Shown in pieces: positions 19,033-30,018 of a stretch of DNA of 39,123 nt. The stretch's first letter is position 1, and each line of letters opens with the position of its first letter. A program made the translations under genes and the position numbers. The stretch is from Candidatus Aenigmatarchaeota archaeon (GTDB lineage Archaea; Aenigmatarchaeota; Aenigmatarchaeia; Aenigmatarchaeales; Aenigmatarchaeaceae). The stretch spans positions 1-39,123 of the forward strand of contig JAAOXY010000082.1 in assembly GCA_018221065.1 (NCBI GenBank), given 5' to 3'. The notes under the pieces are model-generated. The model saw nothing but the letters and a program-made list of their open reading frames with translations. It was not told where the DNA came from and ran no database searches.

Positions 19033-19479
19033 ATGATTAAAAGTCTTTCTATAATTTTATTGATATTATTGTTTGCAACAACTGGGATGAGTGCACCTTT
19101 ATCATCACAGCCGAATATACTCAAAGAACAACCAATTCAATCTACTTTTTTATATCATGTTTTTATTCTAGACCAAGAAATTATTCCAGCAATTTATAGA
19201 TATTTTGACTTATCAAACTTTAAAAAAGCTCCAACCATAGAGCAGCAAAAAGAAATTGGTAAAAATATAGAGACTGTATTTTCAGCATATACAGCCAAGT
19301 ATAAATTAGATAAGATGAAGGTAACTTTACAGCTTGTGGATAATGATACAAAATTGATGCTTTTTGTATATTTTTATGAATACAACTCAAGAAGTTCACA
19401 ATATACACTTGCTTCTATAGGCCGGCAAATTCCAATTTTTAAAATGATTAACAATTTTGAACTTGAAACTATGGAGTGA
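19033..19479 (+). CDS. secreted protein (148 aa)
   Basis: ORF track. MIKSLSIILLILLFATTGMSAP signal peptide. Confidence 0.75.
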   Translation: MIKSLSIILLILLFATTGMSAPLSSQPNILKEQPIQSTFLYHVFILDQEIIPAIYRYFDLSNFKKAPTIEQQKEIGKNIETVFSAYTAKYKLDKMKVTLQLVDNDTKLMLFVYFYEYNSRSSQYTLASIGRQIPIFKMINNFELETME

Positions 19480-19484
19480 TCGAT

Positions 19485-19889
19485 ATGACTGCAGATGACA
19501 AATACTTGACAAAAAATGATTTGGCGTTACTAATGGAAAGTTATCAGAATATGTTTTTAATGCATAAAAATATTTTAGATCAACAAAGTGATATGAGCGA
19601 TGATCTGAAGAAAATTATAGATACACAAAATGAGATTGTAAAAGGTCAATCTACAGACCTTAATGAAATAGGTAAAATTGTTAATACGTTAGATTCACTT
19701 TCCAGCAAGTTGGAAAAGACATACGATAGTTTAGATACAACAGAGGGAAAATTGATAGAAAAGATAGATCAGCATAATGTCGAGCTTGTAAAATTTGCTG
19801 GGTCTATAACTAATAAAGTTTATTTAGCATGGGTGGGTAGTGCCACTGTTATTTTGGGTCTTATAGGTTTATTTCTTAAATTAAGTTAA
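19485..19889 (+). CDS. coiled-coil protein with C-terminal TM anchor
   Basis: ATG 19485 lies 8 nt after GGAG (the track uses GTG 19476). C-terminal VGSATVILGLIGLFLKL. Confidence 0.7.
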   Translation: MTADDKYLTKNDLALLMESYQNMFLMHKNILDQQSDMSDDLKKIIDTQNEIVKGQSTDLNEIGKIVNTLDSLSSKLEKTYDSLDTTEGKLIEKIDQHNVELVKFAGSITNKVYLAWVGSATVILGLIGLFLKLS

Positions 19890-19904: not shown

Positions 19905-20441
19905 ATGGAGAAATTAAAAAAAGAACTTGAAGAAACAAAGAAAGAATTAGAAAAAACTAAAACTGCTATTTGGGATATGATGAATTATTCTAGTATGTTT
20001 GTTTTAATTCTTGACGATAAAATGTGTATTCAATTTATCAACTGGAGTTTAGCTACAGCACTTGGTTTTAAAAATGAAGACGAGCCTCTTGGAAAATGTT
20101 GGTTGGATTTTATTCCAATAGAGCAGAGAGAAATTATATCAGGAATACATAATTCAATTAAAAATGCCGACGAAGAAAAACATAGAGAAATGATAAACGA
20201 TATTAAATGTGTCAATGGAGATGTGATGTCTATAAAATGGTTTAATACTAAAATAAACCGTGAACATGAATGGACTTTTAGTTTTGGTTTAGTAGTGGAA
20301 GCAGCCAATCAGGTTACAGAGGAATCTCTTAGATCATATTATCATGATATTATTCAGAAAGATCGAACTGCAATTTTGTCACTGAGGGATAAAATATTGA
20401 ACGGGTCTGTAACTCAAGATGTAGGCGAACCAAAACTTTAA
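19905..20441 (+). CDS. PAS-like domain protein (178 aa)
   Basis: ORF track. N-terminal coiled coil, then a PAS-fold-like pattern (..FVLILDDKMCIQFINWSLATALGF..E.LGK.WLDFIP...R..I...I... .DIKCVNGDVMSIKWFNT). Fold-level guess. Confidence 0.6.
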   Translation: MEKLKKELEETKKELEKTKTAIWDMMNYSSMFVLILDDKMCIQFINWSLATALGFKNEDEPLGKCWLDFIPIEQREIISGIHNSIKNADEEKHREMINDIKCVNGDVMSIKWFNTKINREHEWTFSFGLVVEAANQVTEESLRSYYHDIIQKDRTAILSLRDKILNGSVTQDVGEPKL

Positions 20442-20459
20442 TACACGAAAGGAACAACA

Positions 20460-23105
20460 ATGAATTTAAAGAAGATGCTAAAAATTGAAGGGGAGAATTT
20501 AGATGGTGAAATTAAGAAAAGGAATGATGCTAAAGAGGTATTAATATCAGTTAAATATGCTGATGGTCATATTCATCACATCCTACCAGATGAGACAGTA
20601 TCAAAAGAATTAGTTGAAGATGCTGCATCACAAGTCAATCTAGAGTTTTCCAAAGCAATTGAAAACCTCCCACCAGATGAAATCGTTTTTAAAAACCGTC
20701 AAGCGATTGGCGACATCTTAACCATGACAGCAGGAATACGAGATTTTAAAAGCGCTTTCCCAAATACCAGAGTTGGAGTAATAACAACTGCTATGCATCT
20801 CTGGGATCACAACCCTCATATTGATCATAACTTTAAAGACCCTGAAAAAATTTTAGAGATAGGACCGGGGTTTGCTACAAATAAATCAAACCTATGGAAT
20901 CTACATATGTGTAATGCCTTCCGTATGGATATAGAAAACAAACTTCATATTTCATTTCCACAGGGACCAATACGTCCAGATATATGGATGACACAAGAAG
21001 AATATAAACGACCGCCCTTGATTGATGGTCCATATTGGTTGTTTGTTTATGGTGGAGAACCTGGTTGGCCTGCCAAGCAATACCATTTATGGCAAAGAGT
21101 AATAAACATACTAAAAGATGATATTAAGATTGTTCAGCTTGGAGTTAAGGGTCATCCATATCCGCATCTTGATAATACAGTTGATTATATTGGAAAAACT
21201 GAAGATAGAAACACTGGTCTTAGAGATCTTTTTAATTTGTTTTTACATGCTCAAGGGTCGCTTGGTTTAGTTTCCATGCATATGCATTTAAGTGCTGCAT
21301 TTGGAAACCCCTGTGTAGTTGTTGCTGGAGCGCGTGAACCTGCATGGTTTACAAACTATTTTGGACATCAGTATATTCAATCAAATGGTACTATGTTTTG
21401 TGGTGATCATACAGCATGTTGGAAGTGTAAACTTGAAGGATGTCGTAATCTTATAGATAGTAAGATACCAAAATGTGTTGAGGTAATTGAACCTGAGGAA
21501 ATTGCTGATGGTGTTAGAAAGTATTATAGAGGTGGAAGATTAGAGTATGGGAAAAAGATTCCTAATAAATTTTTTAAGAATATAACCCAAGAATCAAGAG
21601 TGTTTGTCGCTCCAAAAACTGAACAAATCGATAATGACTATTTAAAGAAATGGGGATTCAAATGGGGTGGAGGATGCCTTACAGATAGAGATTGGATGTT
21701 TATGAAAGAGGCTATCAAAAAATATAAAGTTAAAAAGATTCTTGAGTTTGGTGCTGGTTTATCATCTCTATTGTTTGGAACCGTTGCTGATCATATAGTT
21801 ACTTATGAAACAATGCCAGGATGGATAAAGAAAGTAGAGCCATTTAAAACTCCAAAGAATACATTTTTGCTTTGGGATGGAAAAACAATTCCTTCTGTAG
21901 ATAAGTTTGATATGGTATTTGTAGATGGTCCGTCTGGTGGGGAAAATAGACAATGGTCAATCAAATATGCATCTGAACGTGCTGATCTGGTTATCGTTCA
22001 TGACGCAGGACGTGTTCCTGAAAGAGAATGGCAAGCCAAGTATCTTGAACCTGAATTTGAGTTAATAGCTAAAGGCGGGCATCGATGTCACATGTGGAAA
22101 AGAAGAACAGCGATTGTAGTCGATACATCGAAACCATTAGCAAGAATGTTAACCACATGTAGAGGTTATGGTGGAAGCGAAAGATCTACTATCAATATAA
22201 TGCAAATGTTATTAGATAAAGGCTATAGAGTAGAATTAGTACCAACCGGAAATATTAGTGGAGAGTATTTGAAAAATATTCCAGAGGGAGTAGTTAAACA
22301 GAATTGGGGACCTATATTAACAGAACCATCTGATTTGACAGTTTTTTATACAAGCGATACAATATGGAGTTTTAATAAAGAACCATATACTACATTTATG
22401 CCATATCTAAATACAAAAAGAAAGGTCATGGTTTTAAACTATAAAATCGGTGGAGCTGGAAATGTGGATTGGACTTTCGGTTGGGATAAATATTTATTCT
22501 TAAATTCTGAACATGAAGGGGAGATGATTAAGAGGATTCCACAAGCTGTAACTAAGGTGTTGGCACCACCAACTGATTTAACTGAATTTTTTAAAGTTCA
22601 ACCATATTATGGATTCCCTCTAAAACTGATCCGGCATAGTAGTCAAGGAGATAATAAATATCCTGATTATATGAATGATATGATAGAGAATATATTAGAA
22701 ATAAATCCGGGGATTGAGTTTCATTTTATGCCCCCAAGATCAGATTGTATGGTTCATCCACAAGTCCATAAATATGCAAAGAATCAACCTCCTGTATATG
22801 AGTTTCTGAAAAATGGAAATTGCTTCTTCTATCATTTACCCAATAATTATACTGAAGGAGGTCCTCGCACAATTGTAGAAGCTCATGCTTCTGGTTTATC
22901 AGTAATATGTGATAATCACTCTGGACCAAAAGATAGAGTTACAGATGAAACGGGTTGGCTGTGTAATAGTCAAGAAGATTATTTAGAAGTTATAAAAGAG
23001 ATTATAAATAAACCAGAACTTCTCAGGATTAAAGGAGAAGCTGCCAGAGAAAGAGCTAGAAAAGAATTTATTCCAGAAAAATGGATAGAGGAGATATTAA
23101 CATGA
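20460..23105 (+). CDS. three-domain fusion: GT9 (heptosyltransferase-like) / class I methyltransferase-like / GT4 glycosyltransferase (881 aa)
   Basis: ORF track. The N-terminal region has IGDILTMTAGIRDFKSAFPNTRVGVIT (GT9-like). The middle has ILEFGAGLSS...MVFVDGP (Rossmann SAM-like). The C-terminal region has EGGPRTIVEAHASGLSVI (GT4 EX7E motif). Confidence 0.8.
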   Translation: MNLKKMLKIEGENLDGEIKKRNDAKEVLISVKYADGHIHHILPDETVSKELVEDAASQVNLEFSKAIENLPPDEIVFKNRQAIGDILTMTAGIRDFKSAFPNTRVGVITTAMHLWDHNPHIDHNFKDPEKILEIGPGFATNKSNLWNLHMCNAFRMDIENKLHISFPQGPIRPDIWMTQEEYKRPPLIDGPYWLFVYGGEPGWPAKQYHLWQRVINILKDDIKIVQLGVKGHPYPHLDNTVDYIGKTEDRNTGLRDLFNLFLHAQGSLGLVSMHMHLSAAFGNPCVVVAGAREPAWFTNYFGHQYIQSNGTMFCGDHTACWKCKLEGCRNLIDSKIPKCVEVIEPEEIADGVRKYYRGGRLEYGKKIPNKFFKNITQESRVFVAPKTEQIDNDYLKKWGFKWGGGCLTDRDWMFMKEAIKKYKVKKILEFGAGLSSLLFGTVADHIVTYETMPGWIKKVEPFKTPKNTFLLWDGKTIPSVDKFDMVFVDGPSGGENRQWSIKYASERADLVIVHDAGRVPEREWQAKYLEPEFELIAKGGHRCHMWKRRTAIVVDTSKPLARMLTTCRGYGGSERSTINIMQMLLDKGYRVELVPTGNISGEYLKNIPEGVVKQNWGPILTEPSDLTVFYTSDTIWSFNKEPYTTFMPYLNTKRKVMVLNYKIGGAGNVDWTFGWDKYLFLNSEHEGEMIKRIPQAVTKVLAPPTDLTEFFKVQPYYGFPLKLIRHSSQGDNKYPDYMNDMIENILEINPGIEFHFMPPRSDCMVHPQVHKYAKNQPPVYEFLKNGNCFFYHLPNNYTEGGPRTIVEAHASGLSVICDNHSGPKDRVTDETGWLCNSQEDYLEVIKEIINKPELLRIKGEAARERARKEFIPEKWIEEILT

Positions 23106-23278
23106 AAGTAAAAGTTGGAGATAAAGTTTATGATGGGAACGATGTTCCTGTAATGGTTATTTTAAGAAAAGAGGATAAGGAGAATATTAAAAACATGCAT
23201 CCTGACGCAACAAAGTATTGTTCGTATCCAGAATCAATGACTGTTAAGGAAGTTCAGGAATGGATGAAAACTGAATAG
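23102..23278 (+). CDS. hypothetical protein (58 aa)
   Basis: ATG 23102 in an ATGA overlap with the upstream stop. GGAG upstream. Confidence 0.6.
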   Translation: MKVKVGDKVYDGNDVPVMVILRKEDKENIKNMHPDATKYCSYPESMTVKEVQEWMKTE

Positions 23279-23290
23279 AAAGGAGAAAAA

Positions 23291-23896
23291 ATGAATCTAA
23301 TAATTTCGCCTCATATTGATGATGAGGTAATAGGTTGTGGAGGAATGATTGATAAATGTGAAGAAGCATCATATGTTTATTTTTGTGGTGTTGAGGATTT
23401 TCATGAAATAAGTCAGTATGACAGATTAAAAGAAGTTAAAGATGTATCAGAATTCTTGAGCTATGAATGTGAAGTAAACCTTTTTTCGGTTGTTAATGGT
23501 TATAAAGTAGTAGATTTTATTGATATTTTTCAGGAAGTTATTAAGAGAGTAAAACCTGATAAAATATTTATTCCATATGCTTCTTATAACCAGGATCATC
23601 AAGCAGTTTATCATGCTGCTATGATAGCTTTGAGACCACATGACAGAAACTTCTTTGTTAAAAAAGTTCTGACATATGAGGGGATTGGAGCATTTCAATG
23701 GATGAACAATGATTATAAAGTTAATCATTTTGTTCCTATTAATGTTGATACAAAAGAATTAGCTTATGGTCTTCATAAGTCTCAAGTAAGAGAATTTAGA
23801 TCTATGAAGCATGTTAGAGCTTTAGCAGAATTAAGAGGATCACAAATTGGTGTTCCTTATGCTGAAGCATTTATAATAGAAAGGTGGGTAGAATAA
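23291..23896 (+). CDS. PIG-L / LmbE-family N-acetylglucosaminyl deacetylase (201 aa)
   Basis: ORF track. ISPHIDDEVIGCGG matches the PHxDDE signature. Confidence 0.8.
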   Translation: MNLIISPHIDDEVIGCGGMIDKCEEASYVYFCGVEDFHEISQYDRLKEVKDVSEFLSYECEVNLFSVVNGYKVVDFIDIFQEVIKRVKPDKIFIPYASYNQDHQAVYHAAMIALRPHDRNFFVKKVLTYEGIGAFQWMNNDYKVNHFVPINVDTKELAYGLHKSQVREFRSMKHVRALAELRGSQIGVPYAEAFIIERWVE

Positions 23897-24663
23897 TGGG
23901 ATTAGTAGAAAGGAAGTATGGTCATTTATTAGAAATAGCTTTGGAGTTGGGAAAGACATCTTCAGTATTAAGAGTTGAAGATAATAGTTTTACATATGCT
24001 AGAAATCCGCAATATCTTTCAAAGTTAAAAGATACAAAGAAAAATGTTCAGGTTATGGTACCTTTTCCTATATATAAAGAAGCTGAACAGTTACCAATGA
24101 ATGTTGATGTTCACTTTATAGATGGAGAAGATAATATAGAATATATATGGGCTTATATTCATAATGAAGTTAATAAAGACGTTGAACCAGCTCCTATCAT
24201 TATTGGAAATAATTGTTATATACATGAAACTGCAATTATTGGAGTTCATGGAAATACATATGCTCTGGCTCCAGATGGAAGTCGTATTCACTTAAAAGAA
24301 ATTGGCGGGGTTCGTCTTGAAGATGATGTAGATGTCGAAGCTTTGTCAATTGTCCATAGATCATGTTTTAATAATACAGTTATTGGTAAAGGTTCTAAGG
24401 TATGTGTTAAATGTAATATTGGACATAATGTTAGAATAGGAAAAAATTCATTAATAGCTCCTGGAGTCTTATTAGGCGGAGGCACTACAGTAGGGGATAA
24501 TTGTTTTATATGGCAAGGGGTTATTACCCGAAGTTATATAAATATTTGTGATAATGCAATTGTGGGAGCGGGTTCTGTAGTTCTACATGATCTAAGGGAG
24601 CCGGGAATATATATTGGCTCTCCAGCTAGGTATGTAAAACCATATGATGAAACTTTGAGGTAA
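23896..24663 (+). CDS. left-handed beta-helix (hexapeptide-repeat) acyl/acetyltransferase
   Basis: ATG 23896 in a TAATG overlap, GGTGG 8 nt upstream. Hexapeptide repeats IGHNVRIGKNSLIAPGVLLGGGTTVGDNCFIWQGV. Confidence 0.8.
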   Translation: MGLVERKYGHLLEIALELGKTSSVLRVEDNSFTYARNPQYLSKLKDTKKNVQVMVPFPIYKEAEQLPMNVDVHFIDGEDNIEYIWAYIHNEVNKDVEPAPIIIGNNCYIHETAIIGVHGNTYALAPDGSRIHLKEIGGVRLEDDVDVEALSIVHRSCFNNTVIGKGSKVCVKCNIGHNVRIGKNSLIAPGVLLGGGTTVGDNCFIWQGVITRSYINICDNAIVGAGSVVLHDLREPGIYIGSPARYVKPYDETLR

Positions 24664-24666
24664 ATT

Positions 24667-25671
24667 ATGAAAATAGTTGTAGAAGATGTGTTTGGAAAAA
24701 ATCAGTTTAATGCCTGTAAAGAATATAATAGAAGATTGGACGTTATGGAAATTAACATATCAAAGATACATAACAGTTCAAGTAAATCGAGATTTAAAGA
24801 AGGAACTTATGAAAGATGGTATAGGGAGGCTAATACTATTTATATGAATAATAAAAGAGATCAAGATCTGTTTGATAAACTGGGAAAAGATTTATGTGTT
24901 GTTATACCCTCTCATAGATATCAGAGAGTTTGGTTAAAGGCATGTTTGGAAGGAGTTTCTAAGCTTGGCTACTTTTCTATACTGGCTTATGATAATCCAT
25001 TTTTTCAACCAGCTCATAAATTAGATGCAATGCTTCCATCTCCAGCAACTCTTATGTTGGCTGATTATTTATCTTTCAAACCAAGGACTTATCATAGTGG
25101 GGTTGGTTTTCCTCATCTGTGGAATATGTTGTTTGCTGTTACTCAAGCACAGGCGTTTGGTTTTAAATATATATTTTGTATCAATGGTGACTTTATTATG
25201 GAGAGGCCAGAGAATTTTGAACAGCTAAGAGATATGTTGGGGGATGGAGATATATTTCCTTTGGCATGGGATCCAAAAAGACCAACTTGTGGAACTGCTG
25301 CCTTTATAGCAAAAACTGACCATCAGGTAGAATTTTGGAGAAATTATGCGAAAACCTTTTATCAAAATATGGGAAACGCCGAAGCAAGGCTTGGGAAATA
25401 TTATACAAAGAAGAAATTAAAAGTGGTCCATTTTGAGCCAGGCTCTTTATCACATCAGATGCCTAACCCTAAATCTACATGGTATAATACTATTGGTTTG
25501 AGGCATTTACATGCAGAGCATAAAATAAGAAAATGGAATAGGCAAGAACCCATTGAAGAAAAATATTTCGAGAAACAATTTTTTCCTCCTCCCGGAAAGA
25601 ATATAATAGAGCAATATTGGAGGACTGGAGATAAGAAATTTCTTAAGCAATGGTGGGGAAAAGGAAAATAA
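24667..25671 (+). CDS. hypothetical protein, possibly GT-A-like (334 aa)
   Basis: ORF track. CVVIPSHRY and a later NGD are only a weak hint. Embedded in the sugar island. Confidence 0.7.
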   Translation: MKIVVEDVFGKNQFNACKEYNRRLDVMEINISKIHNSSSKSRFKEGTYERWYREANTIYMNNKRDQDLFDKLGKDLCVVIPSHRYQRVWLKACLEGVSKLGYFSILAYDNPFFQPAHKLDAMLPSPATLMLADYLSFKPRTYHSGVGFPHLWNMLFAVTQAQAFGFKYIFCINGDFIMERPENFEQLRDMLGDGDIFPLAWDPKRPTCGTAAFIAKTDHQVEFWRNYAKTFYQNMGNAEARLGKYYTKKKLKVVHFEPGSLSHQMPNPKSTWYNTIGLRHLHAEHKIRKWNRQEPIEEKYFEKQFFPPPGKNIIEQYWRTGDKKFLKQWWGKGK

Positions 25672-25672
25672 T

Positions 25673-26605
25673 ATGGACACAAAAATTTATTATTATTTAG
25701 ATCAGGTAGAAAAACTCAGAAAAGGGGAATGGGTGCCACCTGTAACTTGTGAAATTGATACGTCCAATTATTGTATGCTATCTTGTGATTTCTGTATGTA
25801 TCAGAAATATATTGAAGGAGATAGAAGACATTTATCATATGATCTATATAATTCTCTATTATATGAACTTGATGAAATGGGAACCAAGAGTATAACATTT
25901 ACAGGCGGGGGCGAACCATTAATGAATCCAAAGATAAATCGTATGATTGAAGACGCTCTTAAAATGGAGTTTGAAATAGGGCTGGTTACAAATGGTTTTT
26001 TATTAGACAAAATAAATAATCTTGATAAGTTTAAGTTTATACGAGTTAGTCTTGATGCTTCAAACCCAAGTATGTATCAAGATGTAAAAGGAGTTGATTG
26101 TTTTTCCAGAGTAATAGATAATATTAAGATGACTCTCGAAAAGAATAAAACAGTTGGTTTAAGTTATGTTGTTAATGATAGGAATAATTTTGATTTAGAA
26201 GAGGCGGAGAAATTAGCTGATAAACTCGGAGTATCATATTTACAGTTTAAACCTGCTTGGATGAATGGAAAAGTATTTGATAATTATACTTTACCCGGAG
26301 GAAAAAATGTAATAAAAACAAATAGGTATCTAGCAAAGGATGATCTTCCATGCCTAATAGCTTCTCTTATTGGAGTTGTTGGAGCTGATGGAGAAATTTA
26401 TTTTTGCTGTCAACATAGAGGAAAGCCAAATTTTAGTTTGGGTAGTTTGTATGTTGATAGATTTGAAACTATCTGGAAACGAAGGTTTGATCTACATCCT
26501 GATATTTCAAAATGTCCTATGTGCAGGTATATGAATTATGCTGAGGCTTATAGAACAGTTTTGGAAAGGGGAACATTATTTTTTGAGCATAGGAATTTTT
26601 TATAA
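25673..26605 (+). CDS. radical SAM enzyme (310 aa)
   Basis: ORF track. CMLSCDFC (CxxxCxxC), GGGEP, and a C-terminal Cys cluster CCQH...CPMC suggesting an auxiliary Fe-S site. Confidence 0.85.
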   Translation: MDTKIYYYLDQVEKLRKGEWVPPVTCEIDTSNYCMLSCDFCMYQKYIEGDRRHLSYDLYNSLLYELDEMGTKSITFTGGGEPLMNPKINRMIEDALKMEFEIGLVTNGFLLDKINNLDKFKFIRVSLDASNPSMYQDVKGVDCFSRVIDNIKMTLEKNKTVGLSYVVNDRNNFDLEEAEKLADKLGVSYLQFKPAWMNGKVFDNYTLPGGKNVIKTNRYLAKDDLPCLIASLIGVVGADGEIYFCCQHRGKPNFSLGSLYVDRFETIWKRRFDLHPDISKCPMCRYMNYAEAYRTVLERGTLFFEHRNFL

Positions 26606-26661: not shown

Positions 26662-27672
26662 ATGTTACGAGACACTATGATAAGAGGAATAGCATCTGGG
26701 ACTTTAATATGGAAAGGTCCTTGGGTTGACAGTAGTGCCTATGTTGTCAATGATTTAGTCGAAAATAATGGTAGTTCGTATATTGCTACATCGGATCATA
26801 TTTCTTCTCCAGTAACAGAACCAGGAGACGGAACTTCCTGGACTACAGTATGGGATTTAGTAGCTGCAAAAGGCGCTGATGGTACTGATGGAGTAGATGG
26901 TCTTAATGGTTTAGACGGTGTAAGTTTTATATGGCGAGGACAGTGGTCCGATTCTAGTTCATATATAATTAATGACGTTGTATATAATAGCGGTAGTTCA
27001 TATATATCTACAGCAGATCATAACGCCAGTTTCCCAACAGAACCTGGGGACGGAACTTCCTGGACGACTGTCTGGGATTTAATGGCTCAAAAAGGTGACG
27101 ATGGAGATCAAGGACCTCAAGGACCAGATGGCCCACAAGGAGATCCAGGACCTCAAGGTCCAGCAGGTCAAGATGGAGTGTTTGATAGGTGTGATCAATT
27201 AATACTTGAAATGGAAATGGAGTTTAAAACTTCATTTCTTTGTAATTATAAAGAGTTTGCATATAGCGCTCAAAAACTATTAATTGATGTTGATATATAT
27301 ACTGATGCTACAGCTAATGTTAAATTATTTCATAAGGACCTAACATACAATGCTCAGAAACAACTAATCCAAACTGATCTTACGAGAATTTCAGATGGTG
27401 CATTGTTAACTAGCATTTTTTCATATGACGCTCAAAAGAATTTAATTTCAATAGAGAGAAGCGGTTATTGTTCTTGTTCAAGTAGCTCTTCAAGTAGTCG
27501 TAGTTCAAGTTCAAGTAGTAGATCAAGCTCATCAAGCAGTTGTAGTTCAAGTTCAAGCAGGAGTTCAATCTCATCAAGTTCAAGTAGTGCTGCTATTCCA
27601 GAAGGAGCAAGAATAACAGATGATGGAGAAATTCGGATAACAGATGATGGAGAGACCAGAATTATAGATTAA
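26662..27672 (+). CDS. collagen-like tail fibre protein with duplicated CBM5/12-like module and poly-Ser tract (336 aa)
   Basis: ORF track. Two copies of IW.G.W..SS.Y..ND.V...GSSYI.T.DH....TEPGDGTSWTTVWDL, each followed by G-X-Y repeats. Ser-rich tract near 27466-27590. Confidence 0.8.
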   Translation: MLRDTMIRGIASGTLIWKGPWVDSSAYVVNDLVENNGSSYIATSDHISSPVTEPGDGTSWTTVWDLVAAKGADGTDGVDGLNGLDGVSFIWRGQWSDSSSYIINDVVYNSGSSYISTADHNASFPTEPGDGTSWTTVWDLMAQKGDDGDQGPQGPDGPQGDPGPQGPAGQDGVFDRCDQLILEMEMEFKTSFLCNYKEFAYSAQKLLIDVDIYTDATANVKLFHKDLTYNAQKQLIQTDLTRISDGALLTSIFSYDAQKNLISIERSGYCSCSSSSSSSRSSSSSSRSSSSSSCSSSSSRSSISSSSSSAAIPEGARITDDGEIRITDDGETRIID

Positions 27673-27684
27673 GAGGAAAATAAA

Positions 27685-28161
27685 ATGTCAAAAAAAATAT
27701 CAGAGTTAGACAGTCCAACATTACCTTTAACTGGTACTGAATTAATGGAAATGTCACAAGATAGTACATCTGTCCAAGTGACCATTATACAATTAGGAAA
27801 CAGCATTGGTTATGTTGACCGTGGTGATCCTTCTGGGGATGATCTTAATAAAGCAGGTATGACACTAGATAGTGCCTGGAATATTTGGGATGTATCTGCT
27901 GTGGTCCCTGCCGGAGCAACGGCAGTAGAATTGGAAATTACTCAGGTCAATACTAATGTTGGAAAGAGATTAGAATTTAGAAAGAATGGAAATTCAAAGG
28001 AAAAGAATATACTGGCACATAAACAAATAGTTTCCTCAGTCACAGAGGTATGGGGAGGTAAAGTTTCTTGTGATTCTAATCGTATCATAGAATATTTTGC
28101 TACTGGAACTGCTGTACCTTGGATTTCTATAGCAATAGTTATAAGAGGTTGGTACATTTAA
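27685..28161 (+). CDS. fibre-associated protein, tandem paralog A (158 aa)
   Basis: ORF track. About 80 percent identical by eye to 28172..28648. Confidence 0.8.
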   Translation: MSKKISELDSPTLPLTGTELMEMSQDSTSVQVTIIQLGNSIGYVDRGDPSGDDLNKAGMTLDSAWNIWDVSAVVPAGATAVELEITQVNTNVGKRLEFRKNGNSKEKNILAHKQIVSSVTEVWGGKVSCDSNRIIEYFATGTAVPWISIAIVIRGWYI

Positions 28162-28171
28162 GGAAAATAAA

Positions 28172-28648
28172 ATGGAAAAAAAAATATCACAATTAGCAAG
28201 CCCAACATTATCTTTAACTGGTACTGAATTAATGGAAATGTCACAAGATGGTACGTCTGTCCAAATAACAATCATACAGTTGGGAAATAATATTAGTTAT
28301 GTAGACCGTGGTGATCCTTCGGTATTTGATCTTGAAGAGGGTTCTATGATTTTAGATAGCGCCTGGCATATTTGGGATGTATCCTCAGTAGTTCCGACCG
28401 GAGCAGTAGCAATAGAATTGGTAATTACTCAGGTCAATACTATTGTTGGAAAGAGATTAGAATTTAGAAAGAATGGAAATTCAAATGAAAAGAATATACT
28501 GGGACATAAACAAATAGTTTCCTCAGTCACAGAGGTATGGGGAGGTAAAGTTTCTTGTGATTCTAATCGTATCATAGAATACTTTGCTACAGGTACAGCT
28601 GGAAACTGGACTACAGTGCAGGTCGTTATAAGAGGATGGTACATATAA
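28172..28648 (+). CDS. fibre-associated protein, tandem paralog B (158 aa)
   Basis: ORF track. The nucleotide sequence is near-identical to paralog A over most of the 3' third. Confidence 0.8.
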   Translation: MEKKISQLASPTLSLTGTELMEMSQDGTSVQITIIQLGNNISYVDRGDPSVFDLEEGSMILDSAWHIWDVSSVVPTGAVAIELVITQVNTIVGKRLEFRKNGNSNEKNILGHKQIVSSVTEVWGGKVSCDSNRIIEYFATGTAGNWTTVQVVIRGWYI

Positions 28649-29577: not shown

Positions 29578-30018
29578 ATGAATTGTGATGGGTGTACAAT
29601 GTGTTGTAATTTATTACATATACCCTGGATGGATTCTCCAGCAGGGGAATGGTGTAAACATTGTGATGTTGATAAAGGGTGTAAGATTTATAATACATCA
29701 CCAAAAAAATGCTTGAATTTTAATTGTGCATATAAACAGATGGAGAAAGCATCAATAAATCTACGGCCTGATAAATGTAGTGTAATATTTGAAAAGATTG
29801 GAGATAGAATCTTTATTGGAACTGTGGATCCAAAGGTGACCAAACTTCAAGAAATAGTATTTAGACAAATTGATGCTTTTCTAGCAGAAGGATTTTCTGT
29901 TGTACTATTTAATCAAAAAATCAAAGAGCCTTTGATTTATAATACTTTAGGAATTACACAAGATGAAGTTTGGAAAATTGTCCAAATGGAGGCACAAAAA
30001 TTAGATGACCGCTCCTAA
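29578..30018 (+). CDS. YkgJ-type CxxCxxCC putative Zn/Fe-chelating protein (146 aa)
   Basis: ORF track. N-terminal CDGCTMCC plus further Cys pairs. Confidence 0.7.
   Translation: MNCDGCTMCCNLLHIPWMDSPAGEWCKHCDVDKGCKIYNTSPKKCLNFNCAYKQMEKASINLRPDKCSVIFEKIGDRIFIGTVDPKVTKLQEIVFRQIDAFLAEGFSVVLFNQKIKEPLIYNTLGITQDEVWKIVQMEAQKLDDRS

Follow-up and report, generated by a model that had tools for sequence, protein, structure and literature searches.

A phage-encoded protein uniting two glycosyltransferase-like modules and a methyltransferase-like module, and its proposed role in O-glycosylation of poly-serine virion proteins

The window considered in this study, 39,123 nucleotides of contig JAAOXY010000082.1 (assembly GCA_018221065.1, filed as Candidatus Aenigmatarchaeota archaeon), is a complete 39-kb contig of phage origin inside a 644-kb metagenome-assembled genome (MAG) of 109 contigs; the Heimdallarchaeaceae and Pacearchaeota MAG labels found on a few homologues of the protein described here are most likely binning artefacts. 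On its forward strand, from 20460..23105, one unbroken open reading frame (ORF) encodes an 881-residue protein, P0001, in which a module resembling family 9 glycosyltransferases (GT9), a methyltransferase module and a family 4 glycosyltransferase (GT4) module are combined. The ATG is preceded at 7 nt by an AGGA-type ribosome-binding site, and the gene belongs to a co-directional block that begins at about 17.7 kb, is tightly spaced from 19033 and extends past a tail-fibre-like gene. We propose, with a probability of about 0.5, that P0001 is a soluble cytoplasmic enzyme which O-glycosylates and O-methylates poly-serine tracts of virion proteins in a clade of uncultured large phages.

When 5.8 billion proteins were searched with P0001, 316 metagenomic ones matched at E<=1e-3. 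Of the best 120, nearly all are full-length (877-991 residues, 47-91% identity), the exceptions being a few partial entries and one intein-bearing form of 1340 residues. Hence, the fusion is not an artefact, and an origin by sequencing error, frameshift or mis-assembly is ruled out by hundreds of full-length homologues. The family is also encoded on 28 viral contigs of IMG/VR, whereas tblastn found no match in the 50,697 records of deposited phage genomes, in line with the remark in a first-pass annotation of this DNA that the architecture was unfamiliar among characterised phage proteins. Alignments of the homologues place invariant residues in all three modules, and judging from them the catalytic positions of each module are under purifying selection. 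We therefore regard the three-module architecture as real, conserved and secure; the single ORF with three modules that had been read from the letters is upheld by the uninterrupted frame and the full-length homologues, and the suggested database search for the same architecture has likewise given a positive answer.

The first module is a GT9-type domain of GT-B fold (residues 72-385; 20673..21614, forward strand), assigned by PF01075 in relatives and by profile comparison with the PDB. Its putative catalytic base, D85 in 'IGDIL', lies in a 'GD' motif at the position of the catalytic base in WaaC and TibC, and it is accompanied by K206 and by the nucleotide-sugar motif 'LVSMHMHLSAAFGNPCVVVAGAREP' (residues 270-294). 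Across 126 GT9 domain instances D85, K206, R292 and E293 are nearly invariant, with Asp at the first position in 101 of the 102 ungapped instances and Lys at the second in 106 of 107. PF01075 itself scores 11.3 bits on P0001 (E=0.21), which is below the cut-off of 22; of 49 close homologues, 16 give a match with E<=0.05; three checked relatives exceed the cut-off, and so do 8 of 10 proteins from the wider family of GT9-module proteins (23-129 bits). A narrow N-domain profile made from close homologues retrieved nothing from the PDB even at E<=10. A broad profile, built from 18 diverse N-modules with that of the window placed first, retrieved WaaF (2.1e-10), WaaC (1.7e-4) and TibC (2.1e-4).

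In the C-lobe of this module sits a four-cysteine insert (C314, C320, C328 and C339; 21399..21476, forward strand), which by its conservation and its alignment with TibC is a candidate metal finger. Within the three-module family all four cysteines are invariant. Three of them, C314, C320 and C339, stay nearly so across the wider family, where 67 of 107 instances have C328. TibC of E. coli (PDB 4RAP, 4RB4) O-heptosylates serines of an adhesin and forms with AAH part of the bacterial autotransporter heptosyltransferases (BAHT) (PMC4358343). It departs from the heptosyltransferases of lipopolysaccharide (LPS) synthesis in that its N-lobe is reduced to four strands, a beta-barrel of 97 residues stands at its N-terminus, a beta-hairpin thumb is present, and the C-lobe contains an iron finger with Cys-339, 342, 358 and 370 (PMC4358343). 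A dodecameric ring is a further trait of the BAHT group. The GT9 family profile aligns with TibC residues 214-388, through the cysteine insert. In the alignment columns C320-W321 coincides with the second Cys-Trp of TibC, C328 and C339 with its third and fourth cysteines, and C314 falls two columns off the first finger Cys, beside a six-residue gap. The TibC cysteines in the aligned stretch show their published spacing (x2, x15, x11). Both proteins have a distance of 229 residues between catalytic Asp and first finger Cys (85-314 in P0001, 110-339 in TibC). Moreover, TibC (E=2.6e-9) is the sole GT9-type structure among the 50 listed Foldseek matches of the P0001 model in the PDB. The modelled N-lobe comprises about 100 residues with three to four strands, of which DSSP assigns 74-79, 104-109 and 131-133 alone.

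P0001 thus appears TibC-like in being a soluble GT9-type GT-B protein with a four-cysteine finger in the C-lobe and, according to the model, a reduced N-lobe. No counterpart of the beta-hairpin thumb is evident in the model between strands 223-228 and 241-244, and since the beta-barrel is missing as well, we consider the GT9 module a probable relative of TibC that shares a predicted metal finger, not a member of the BAHT group. The GT9-like label given in the first-pass annotation therefore stands, while the affinity to TibC rather than to the LPS type and the probable poly-Ser acceptor had not been seen.

A GT9 domain could also mean something quite different, namely an LPS-core type heptosyltransferase, by which the phage would remodel the outer-membrane glycolipid of its host, for instance as a means of preventing superinfection or receptor recognition. 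The LPS inner core is the target of most characterised GT9 enzymes, WaaF is the best PDB sequence match of the module (2e-10) followed by WaaC, and the pipelines of the Joint Genome Institute (JGI) label homologues as 'ADP-heptose:LPS heptosyltransferase'. WaaF and WaaC (1PSW, 2GT1, 2H1H) share with P0001 the GD motif that opens the N-lobe and the 'MH(L/I)AAA..P' segment, with the best match over the nucleotide-sugar-binding half. However, these LPS enzymes have no cysteine finger, their alignments ending before the insert; they possess a full-size N-lobe, whereas that of P0001 is predicted to be reduced like that of TibC, they act on a lipid A-core acceptor, and they are unfused. In addition, P0001 is encoded in the same-strand block as fibre genes, relatives adjoin tail modules, and LPS remodelling offers no role for the poly-Ser tracts described below. 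We consider it quite unlikely.

The GT9 module is not restricted to the three-module family. An exhaustive profile search of the wider family at E<=1e-30 yielded 884 representative clusters, in which a variety of architectures is represented, among them N-modules alone (about 310-350 residues), GT4 modules alone and GT9-GT4 proteins without methyltransferase. Fusion partners of the N-module include Mannosyl_trans3, GT2, Methyltransf_24 and Methyltransf_12/25/11, and one protein of 1223 residues reads GT9-GT4-GT9-Methyltransf_24; the GT9-module proteins of the wider family are all metagenomic, and a single one of them bears a pipeline name, 'ADP-heptose:LPS heptosyltransferase'. Because the module is repeatedly fused to methyltransferases of unrelated families, its architectures argue that methylation would be part of the same product as the GT9 transfer.

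Inteins with LAGLIDADG-type inserts were seen in P0116, in locus L030 (1616-5437) and in a 737-residue ORF of locus L018 (L018_7). Where they interrupt homologues of the enzyme, two independent insertion sites lie in the GT9 module, one after 'GDILMFT' (T90-M-T; in the 1305-residue L030 homologue, near the catalytic Asp) and one before 'CVVVAGAREP' (C285; in P0116, within the nucleotide-sugar motif), which would fit the view that these are the most constrained sites of the module. A third intein was found in a neighbouring DegT aminotransferase, so that inteins seem to be common in sugar genes of the phage clade to which P0001 belongs. The 365-residue stand-alone 'paralogues' that emerged from the neighbour clustering turned out to be DegT aminotransferases, which had been clustered via shared inteins alone.

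The middle module is a predicted class I S-adenosylmethionine (SAM)-dependent methyltransferase (residues 395-550; 21642..22109, forward strand), assigned by profile, model and motifs. The motifs comprise LEFGAGLS (428-435), E450, FVDGP (487-491) and HDAGR (514-518); G431 and D489 are invariant, and motif I (E429-F-G431-A-G433), E450 and H514-D515 are conserved. Pfam methyltransferase families gave no match at E<=0.05 in any of the 49 members of the P0001 family. A profile of residues 385-560 cut from 25 homologues, however, matched cation-dependent class I O-methyltransferases in the PDB, first 3ntv (E=1.4e-5) and then 2yvl, 8k1f, 3r3h, 5zw3 and 3dul, and the alignments span motif I and the beta4 'F(V/I)D' segment. 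The AlphaFold model of this domain (mean predicted local distance difference test, pLDDT, 93.5) has the beta1-7 topology with the canonical seven-strand order. Foldseek returned 428 matches at E<=1e-3; every one of the 50 listed belongs to the class I SAM methyltransferases, among them COMT and the sugar O-methyltransferase MycF. Because profile-to-PDB matches are its only sequence link and no curated family recognises it, the module is best described as a predicted divergent lineage of the class I fold. It looks active, judged by the conservation of motif I, E450, D489 and H514-D515.

The C-terminal module is a GT4 domain of the retaining type with GT-B fold (residues 560-881; 22137..23102, forward strand), as indicated by Pfam, motifs and structure matches. 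PF00534 scores 35.1 bits on P0001 against a cut-off of 26.4 and matches 49 of 49 homologues. The GGSERS loop (571-576), the R725/K733 pair and E799-x7-E807 are present, and E807 is invariant. With PglA, BshA, TreT and other GT4 enzymes as the top structural matches of P0001, the module has the same fold, EX7E motif and R/K phosphate-binding pair as the retaining enzymes BshA, MshA, PglA, TreT and PimB'. It differs from BshA, MshA, SdgB and GtfA in being the last module of a three-module protein.

The whole-protein AlphaFold model, for which 73 homologues were used, gives the single domains with confidence (mean pLDDT 90.4) but not their mutual arrangement (predicted template modelling score 0.49). 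Its Foldseek matches in the PDB comprise GT4 enzymes (PglA, BshA, TreT, PimB', MshA), a capsule multienzyme and TibC. Residues 1-70 (20460..20669, forward strand) form an N-terminal extension modelled as a small alpha/beta unit with three helices (3-12, 16-20, 45-58) and two short strands. This extension contains a conserved His-rich motif, DGHIHH (residues 35-40; 20559-20585 encode residues 34-42), in which H39 is nearly invariant and which occurs twice in the homologue P0116; it may be a candidate metal or interaction site. No segment of P0001 is hydrophobic enough for a membrane helix (top 19-residue Kyte-Doolittle mean of 1.24), which suits an enzyme modifying proteins that are assembled in the cytoplasm.

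Plain scans of P0001 with Pfam, NCBIfam and PHROGs supported the GT4 module alone. The domain scan that the first-pass annotation had suggested as a check thus returned the GT4 part and missed the GT9 and methyltransferase parts, and taken by itself it would have led to a wrong rejection of the three-module finding. The three folds were recovered when AlphaFold parsing was combined with family profiles and Foldseek. The motifs that had been read from the sequence are present (EFGAG at 429-433, VDGP at 488-491, E799-x7-E807), and each of the three assignments made there holds: the C-terminal EX7E domain of GT4 type through Pfam score, kept motif and structural matches, the methyltransferase-like segment through PDB profiles and the class I SAM fold although Pfam is silent, and the heptosyltransferase-type N domain through relatives that pass PF01075 and the broad profile matching WaaF, WaaC and TibC.

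The proposed acceptor is found a few genes downstream. The tail-fibre-like protein encoded at 26662..27672 (forward strand; phrog_5073 tail fibre, E=4e-27) consists of two CBM5/12-like modules and collagen triplets, for which the Pfam matches Collagen and CBM_5_12 are weak and both just below their cut-offs, and it carries a poly-Ser tract at residues 263-315 (27448..27606, forward strand), encoded by mixed AGY and TCN codons. The window and 30 loci with the enzyme gene at their centre (485 kb) were translated in six frames and scanned for strict tracts, defined as at least 70% Ser over 30 residues. Apart from the fibre of the window, such tracts occur within 10 kb of the enzyme gene in 15 of the 30 loci. 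The tracts range from about 30 to 1284 residues, and one protein of 2563 residues is half serine. Taken together, the 68 tracts hold 7204 residues that are 85% Ser, with run lengths peaking at 4-10 and broken by single L, I, R, F, V or K. Since all six Ser codons are mixed within the tracts, they reflect selection on the protein and are not a product of DNA slippage.

All tract carriers that can be named are tail proteins, namely the fibre of the window, its orthologue in locus L004, whose Ser tract of 68 residues has the corresponding position, and a phrog_1101 tail protein (E=2.4e-47) with a C-terminal tract. Many other carriers consist of an N-terminal domain, the Ser tract and then a common C-terminal domain of about 110 residues, a layout which is that of a stalk or linker. 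This domain (...YKTG...W..Y.G.SF.SLGWV...) was seen in L011:21327-22205, L020:17729-19075 and L027:3177-4007; it is without a PHROG match and may represent the module that the stalked proteins expose at their distal end. Two large contigs without a tract within 10 kb of the enzyme gene encode such proteins elsewhere, at least five on a contig of 273.6 kb (97% complete according to CheckV) and at least eight in the first 96 kb of a 132-kb contig. The remaining 604,755 bp of the assembly, of similar G+C content, and the first 50 kb of phage AR9 served as controls, and neither contains a strict tract.

Between P0001 and the fibre gene lies a set of putative tailoring genes. A 65-residue ORF (23081-23278, forward strand) separates P0001 from the second ORF downstream, which encodes a PIG-L/LmbE-family de-N-acetylase (23291..23896, forward strand; PF02585, 37.9 bits). 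This is followed on the same strand by a hexapeptide-repeat acyltransferase (23884..24663; PF00132, E=2e-14), a 334-residue protein of an uncharacterised family, c1, defined by neighbour clustering (24667..25671), and a radical SAM/SPASM enzyme (25673..26605; PF04055, E=3e-18, and PF13186). Family c1 is the commonest neighbour of the three-module gene, at 16 loci and often in two tandem copies. It has no Pfam match and no PDB sequence match, a PDB profile search included; by eye, its conserved pattern YDN...NGDC...P-E suggests a GT-A-like enzyme. A GT4 enzyme transferring N-acetylglucosamine (GlcNAc), followed by a deacetylase of the PIG-L family, is the logic of bacillithiol, mycothiol and glycosylphosphatidylinositol (GPI)-anchor synthesis. 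The PIG-L gene near downstream, together with the rank of BshA and MshA among the best GT4 matches of P0001, weakly suggests that the GT4 module might transfer GlcNAc.

In the relatives, the large gene is constant and the downstream genes vary, including an NDP-sugar 4,6-dehydratase or epimerase, a DegT aminotransferase, up to three Methyltransf_24 enzymes and extra glycosyltransferases. A constant core enzyme with variable tailoring genes is the usual build of surface-glycan loci. Immediately upstream of P0001 lie a gene at 19905-20441 and another at 19476-19889 (a weak PAS_9 match and a coiled-coil protein), both of which recur upstream in loci L021, L028 and L031; in L003, L005, L006, L010 and L011 a larger PAS/GAF/response-regulator protein is found upstream of the enzyme gene instead. 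Directly after the fibre gene follow two tandem 158-residue paralogues that are much alike by eye (27685-28161 and 28172-28648), the first without any family match and the second without a match in PHROGs. A 146-residue protein encoded at 29578-30018 starts MNCDGCTMCCNLLHIPW, and its CxxCxxCC pattern resembles that of the YkgJ-type zinc/iron-chelating domain. A scan for promoters and terminators between 17 and 30 kb was uninformative, with promoter-like sites fewer than in shuffled sequences.

The surrounding genes also bear on whether the enzyme might hypermodify phage DNA, by glycosylating hydroxymethyl-pyrimidines and then methylating the sugar in order to evade restriction. Phage GT-B enzymes are the classic DNA glucosyltransferases, diverse DNA glycans are reportedly now known, a radical SAM enzyme is encoded nearby, and two related phages carry divergent genes of the thymidylate synthase family, possible hydroxymethylases that would allow for base modification in the clade (PF00303, ThyA-like; G003:C1:30496-30852 with 41 bits and G004:C1:245682-245921 with 22 bits). 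However, these ThyA-like matches are weak and lie about 90 to 200 kb from the enzyme gene, and the immediate neighbours of the enzyme gene are sugar-nucleotide tailoring and fibre genes, not base-modification genes. Neither GT9 nor GT4 is known to have a DNA-modifying member, which counts further against this explanation, and we judge it very unlikely.

A non-protein glycan is a further alternative. P0001 would then make or remodel an oligo- or polysaccharide that carries methyl groups and is primed by a lipid or a free molecule, in the manner of capsule multienzymes or mycobacterial methylmannose polysaccharide. Such a product could, for instance, mask the surface of infected cells or be a non-covalent decoration of the particle. 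The enzymes encoded downstream are ordinary sugar-nucleotide tailoring enzymes, the pairing of glycosyltransferases with a methyltransferase is typical of such pathways, and the fold search placed a capsule-synthesis multienzyme (8qoy, E=1e-13) as the top whole-chain match and a methylmannose-polysaccharide mannosyltransferase (7qsg) at rank 9. The TM-scores of 8qoy are low, however (0.26-0.30), so that this match reflects common GT-B modules and not a common architecture. Furthermore, in the island we saw neither a polymerase-type repeat nor a gene for a transporter or lipid carrier, and such a glycan explains neither the TibC-type finger nor the striking co-occurrence with poly-Ser virion proteins. 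For these reasons we regard a non-protein glycan as unlikely. None of the three alternatives discussed here accounts for the TibC-type finger together with the poly-Ser proteins.

We therefore prefer the glycosylation of poly-Ser tracts, for which the tail-fibre-like protein at 26662-27672 is the candidate target in the window. Of the two GT-B modules, one would attach a first sugar to Ser hydroxyls and the other would add the second. The GT9 module is favoured as the starter because it shares the four-cysteine finger of TibC, which O-heptosylates protein serines, and the retaining-type GT4 module would then extend. The class I methyltransferase would O-methylate a sugar hydroxyl and thereby cap the glycan. 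The variable downstream genes, here the PIG-L deacetylase, the acyltransferase, c1 and the radical SAM enzyme and in relatives the NDP-sugar dehydratase, the DegT aminotransferase and Methyltransf_24 enzymes, might tailor the donor or the attached sugar. The folds of the three modules, their conserved active-site residues, the conservation and modularity of the family, the homology of the finger with that of TibC and the co-occurrence with poly-Ser tail or fibre proteins are observed, whereas the donor sugars, the order of the steps, the acceptor and the placing of the methyl group on a sugar are parts that we infer. The GT4 enzymes SdgB and GtfA are able to glycosylate Ser-rich repeats of serine-rich adhesins (PMC6973325). 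Since they too start glycans on such repeats, the GT4 module may instead act first.

More tentatively, and at somewhat less than even odds in our estimation, the data may reflect a widespread system of virion maturation, in which poly-Ser, mucin-like stalks of tens to more than 1000 residues in tail fibres would be coated in the cytoplasm with methyl-capped O-glycans by a TibC-derived metal-finger GT9 module, a GT4 module and a methyltransferase, and in which the variable downstream island would give each phage its own 'serotype'.

Several points weigh against the glycosylation of poly-Ser tracts by P0001. As to the GT9 module, its best PDB sequence match is an LPS enzyme, WaaF (2e-10), and TibC is weaker (2e-4); the N-terminal beta-barrel of TibC is missing from the model, and the cysteine spacing differs, being C-x5-C-x7-C-x10 in P0001 and C-x2-C-x15-C-x11 in TibC. 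By sequence, the GT4 module is not specifically close to SdgB and GtfA, the known Ser-O-GlcNAc transferases; SdgB has ranks 34 and 41 in the fold search, and neither protein appears in the sequence search. No match to SIS_2, the Pfam family that includes the heptose-pathway isomerase GmhA, was obtained in six related phage records, hence a heptose donor would have to be supplied by the host, or the donor would be another sugar. The co-occurrence of enzyme and tracts was recorded within one phage clade, where shared ancestry could explain it without a functional link, and two distant GT9-module relatives, one stand-alone and one fused to Mannosyl_trans3, have no Ser tract within 10 kb. Both of them adjoin tail genes, among which are a tape-measure module and a 2564-residue LamG protein. 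Finally, all of the support comes from sequence comparison, structure prediction and gene context.

Among known systems, TibC/AAH is the closest homologue of known function, and the chlorovirus protein A064R is the closest functional analogue. The similarity of P0001 to TibC in sequence is remote (E=2e-4 with the family profile), and P0001 differs by its two extra catalytic modules, by being phage-encoded and by the proposed acceptor, a poly-Ser tract in place of a beta-helix repeat. A064R of PBCV-1 consists of a GT-A domain, a novel glycosyltransferase and then a methyltransferase; it finishes and methyl-caps an N-linked capsid glycan, its activities have been demonstrated, and it has been called one of the few known enzymes with three transferase domains (PMC9614988). 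Like P0001 it is a virus-encoded single polypeptide with two glycosyltransferases and one methyltransferase, but the two are non-homologous by description, since the folds differ, and A064R has another domain order and acts on the capsid glycan of a eukaryotic virus. In mycobacteriophages, virion proteins are reported to be glycosylated within the cytoplasm, where glycosyltransferases encoded by the phage modify its capsid and tail proteins in their C-terminal parts (Freeman et al. 2023 as cited in PMC12619734). These enzymes belong to other families and are stand-alone, and neither a poly-Ser tract nor a methyltransferase module is reported for them. A literature search, which covered a part of the journals, found no paper that links poly-Ser phage proteins, BAHT-like enzymes or the architecture of P0001.

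If the proposed role is true, glycosylation of phage particles would be far commoner and more elaborate than the few mycobacteriophage cases suggest, and it would have a genomic signature, namely a GT9 module with cysteine finger together with poly-Ser proteins. Moreover, a compact enzyme with three activities and a genetically encodable (Ser)n tag would become available for glyco-engineering. TibC-type protein glycosyltransferases, known from a handful of adhesin systems, would be extended to viruses, and the sugar coat of the fibres would bear on host recognition, particle stability, adhesion to mucus or particles, and antibody recognition of phages.

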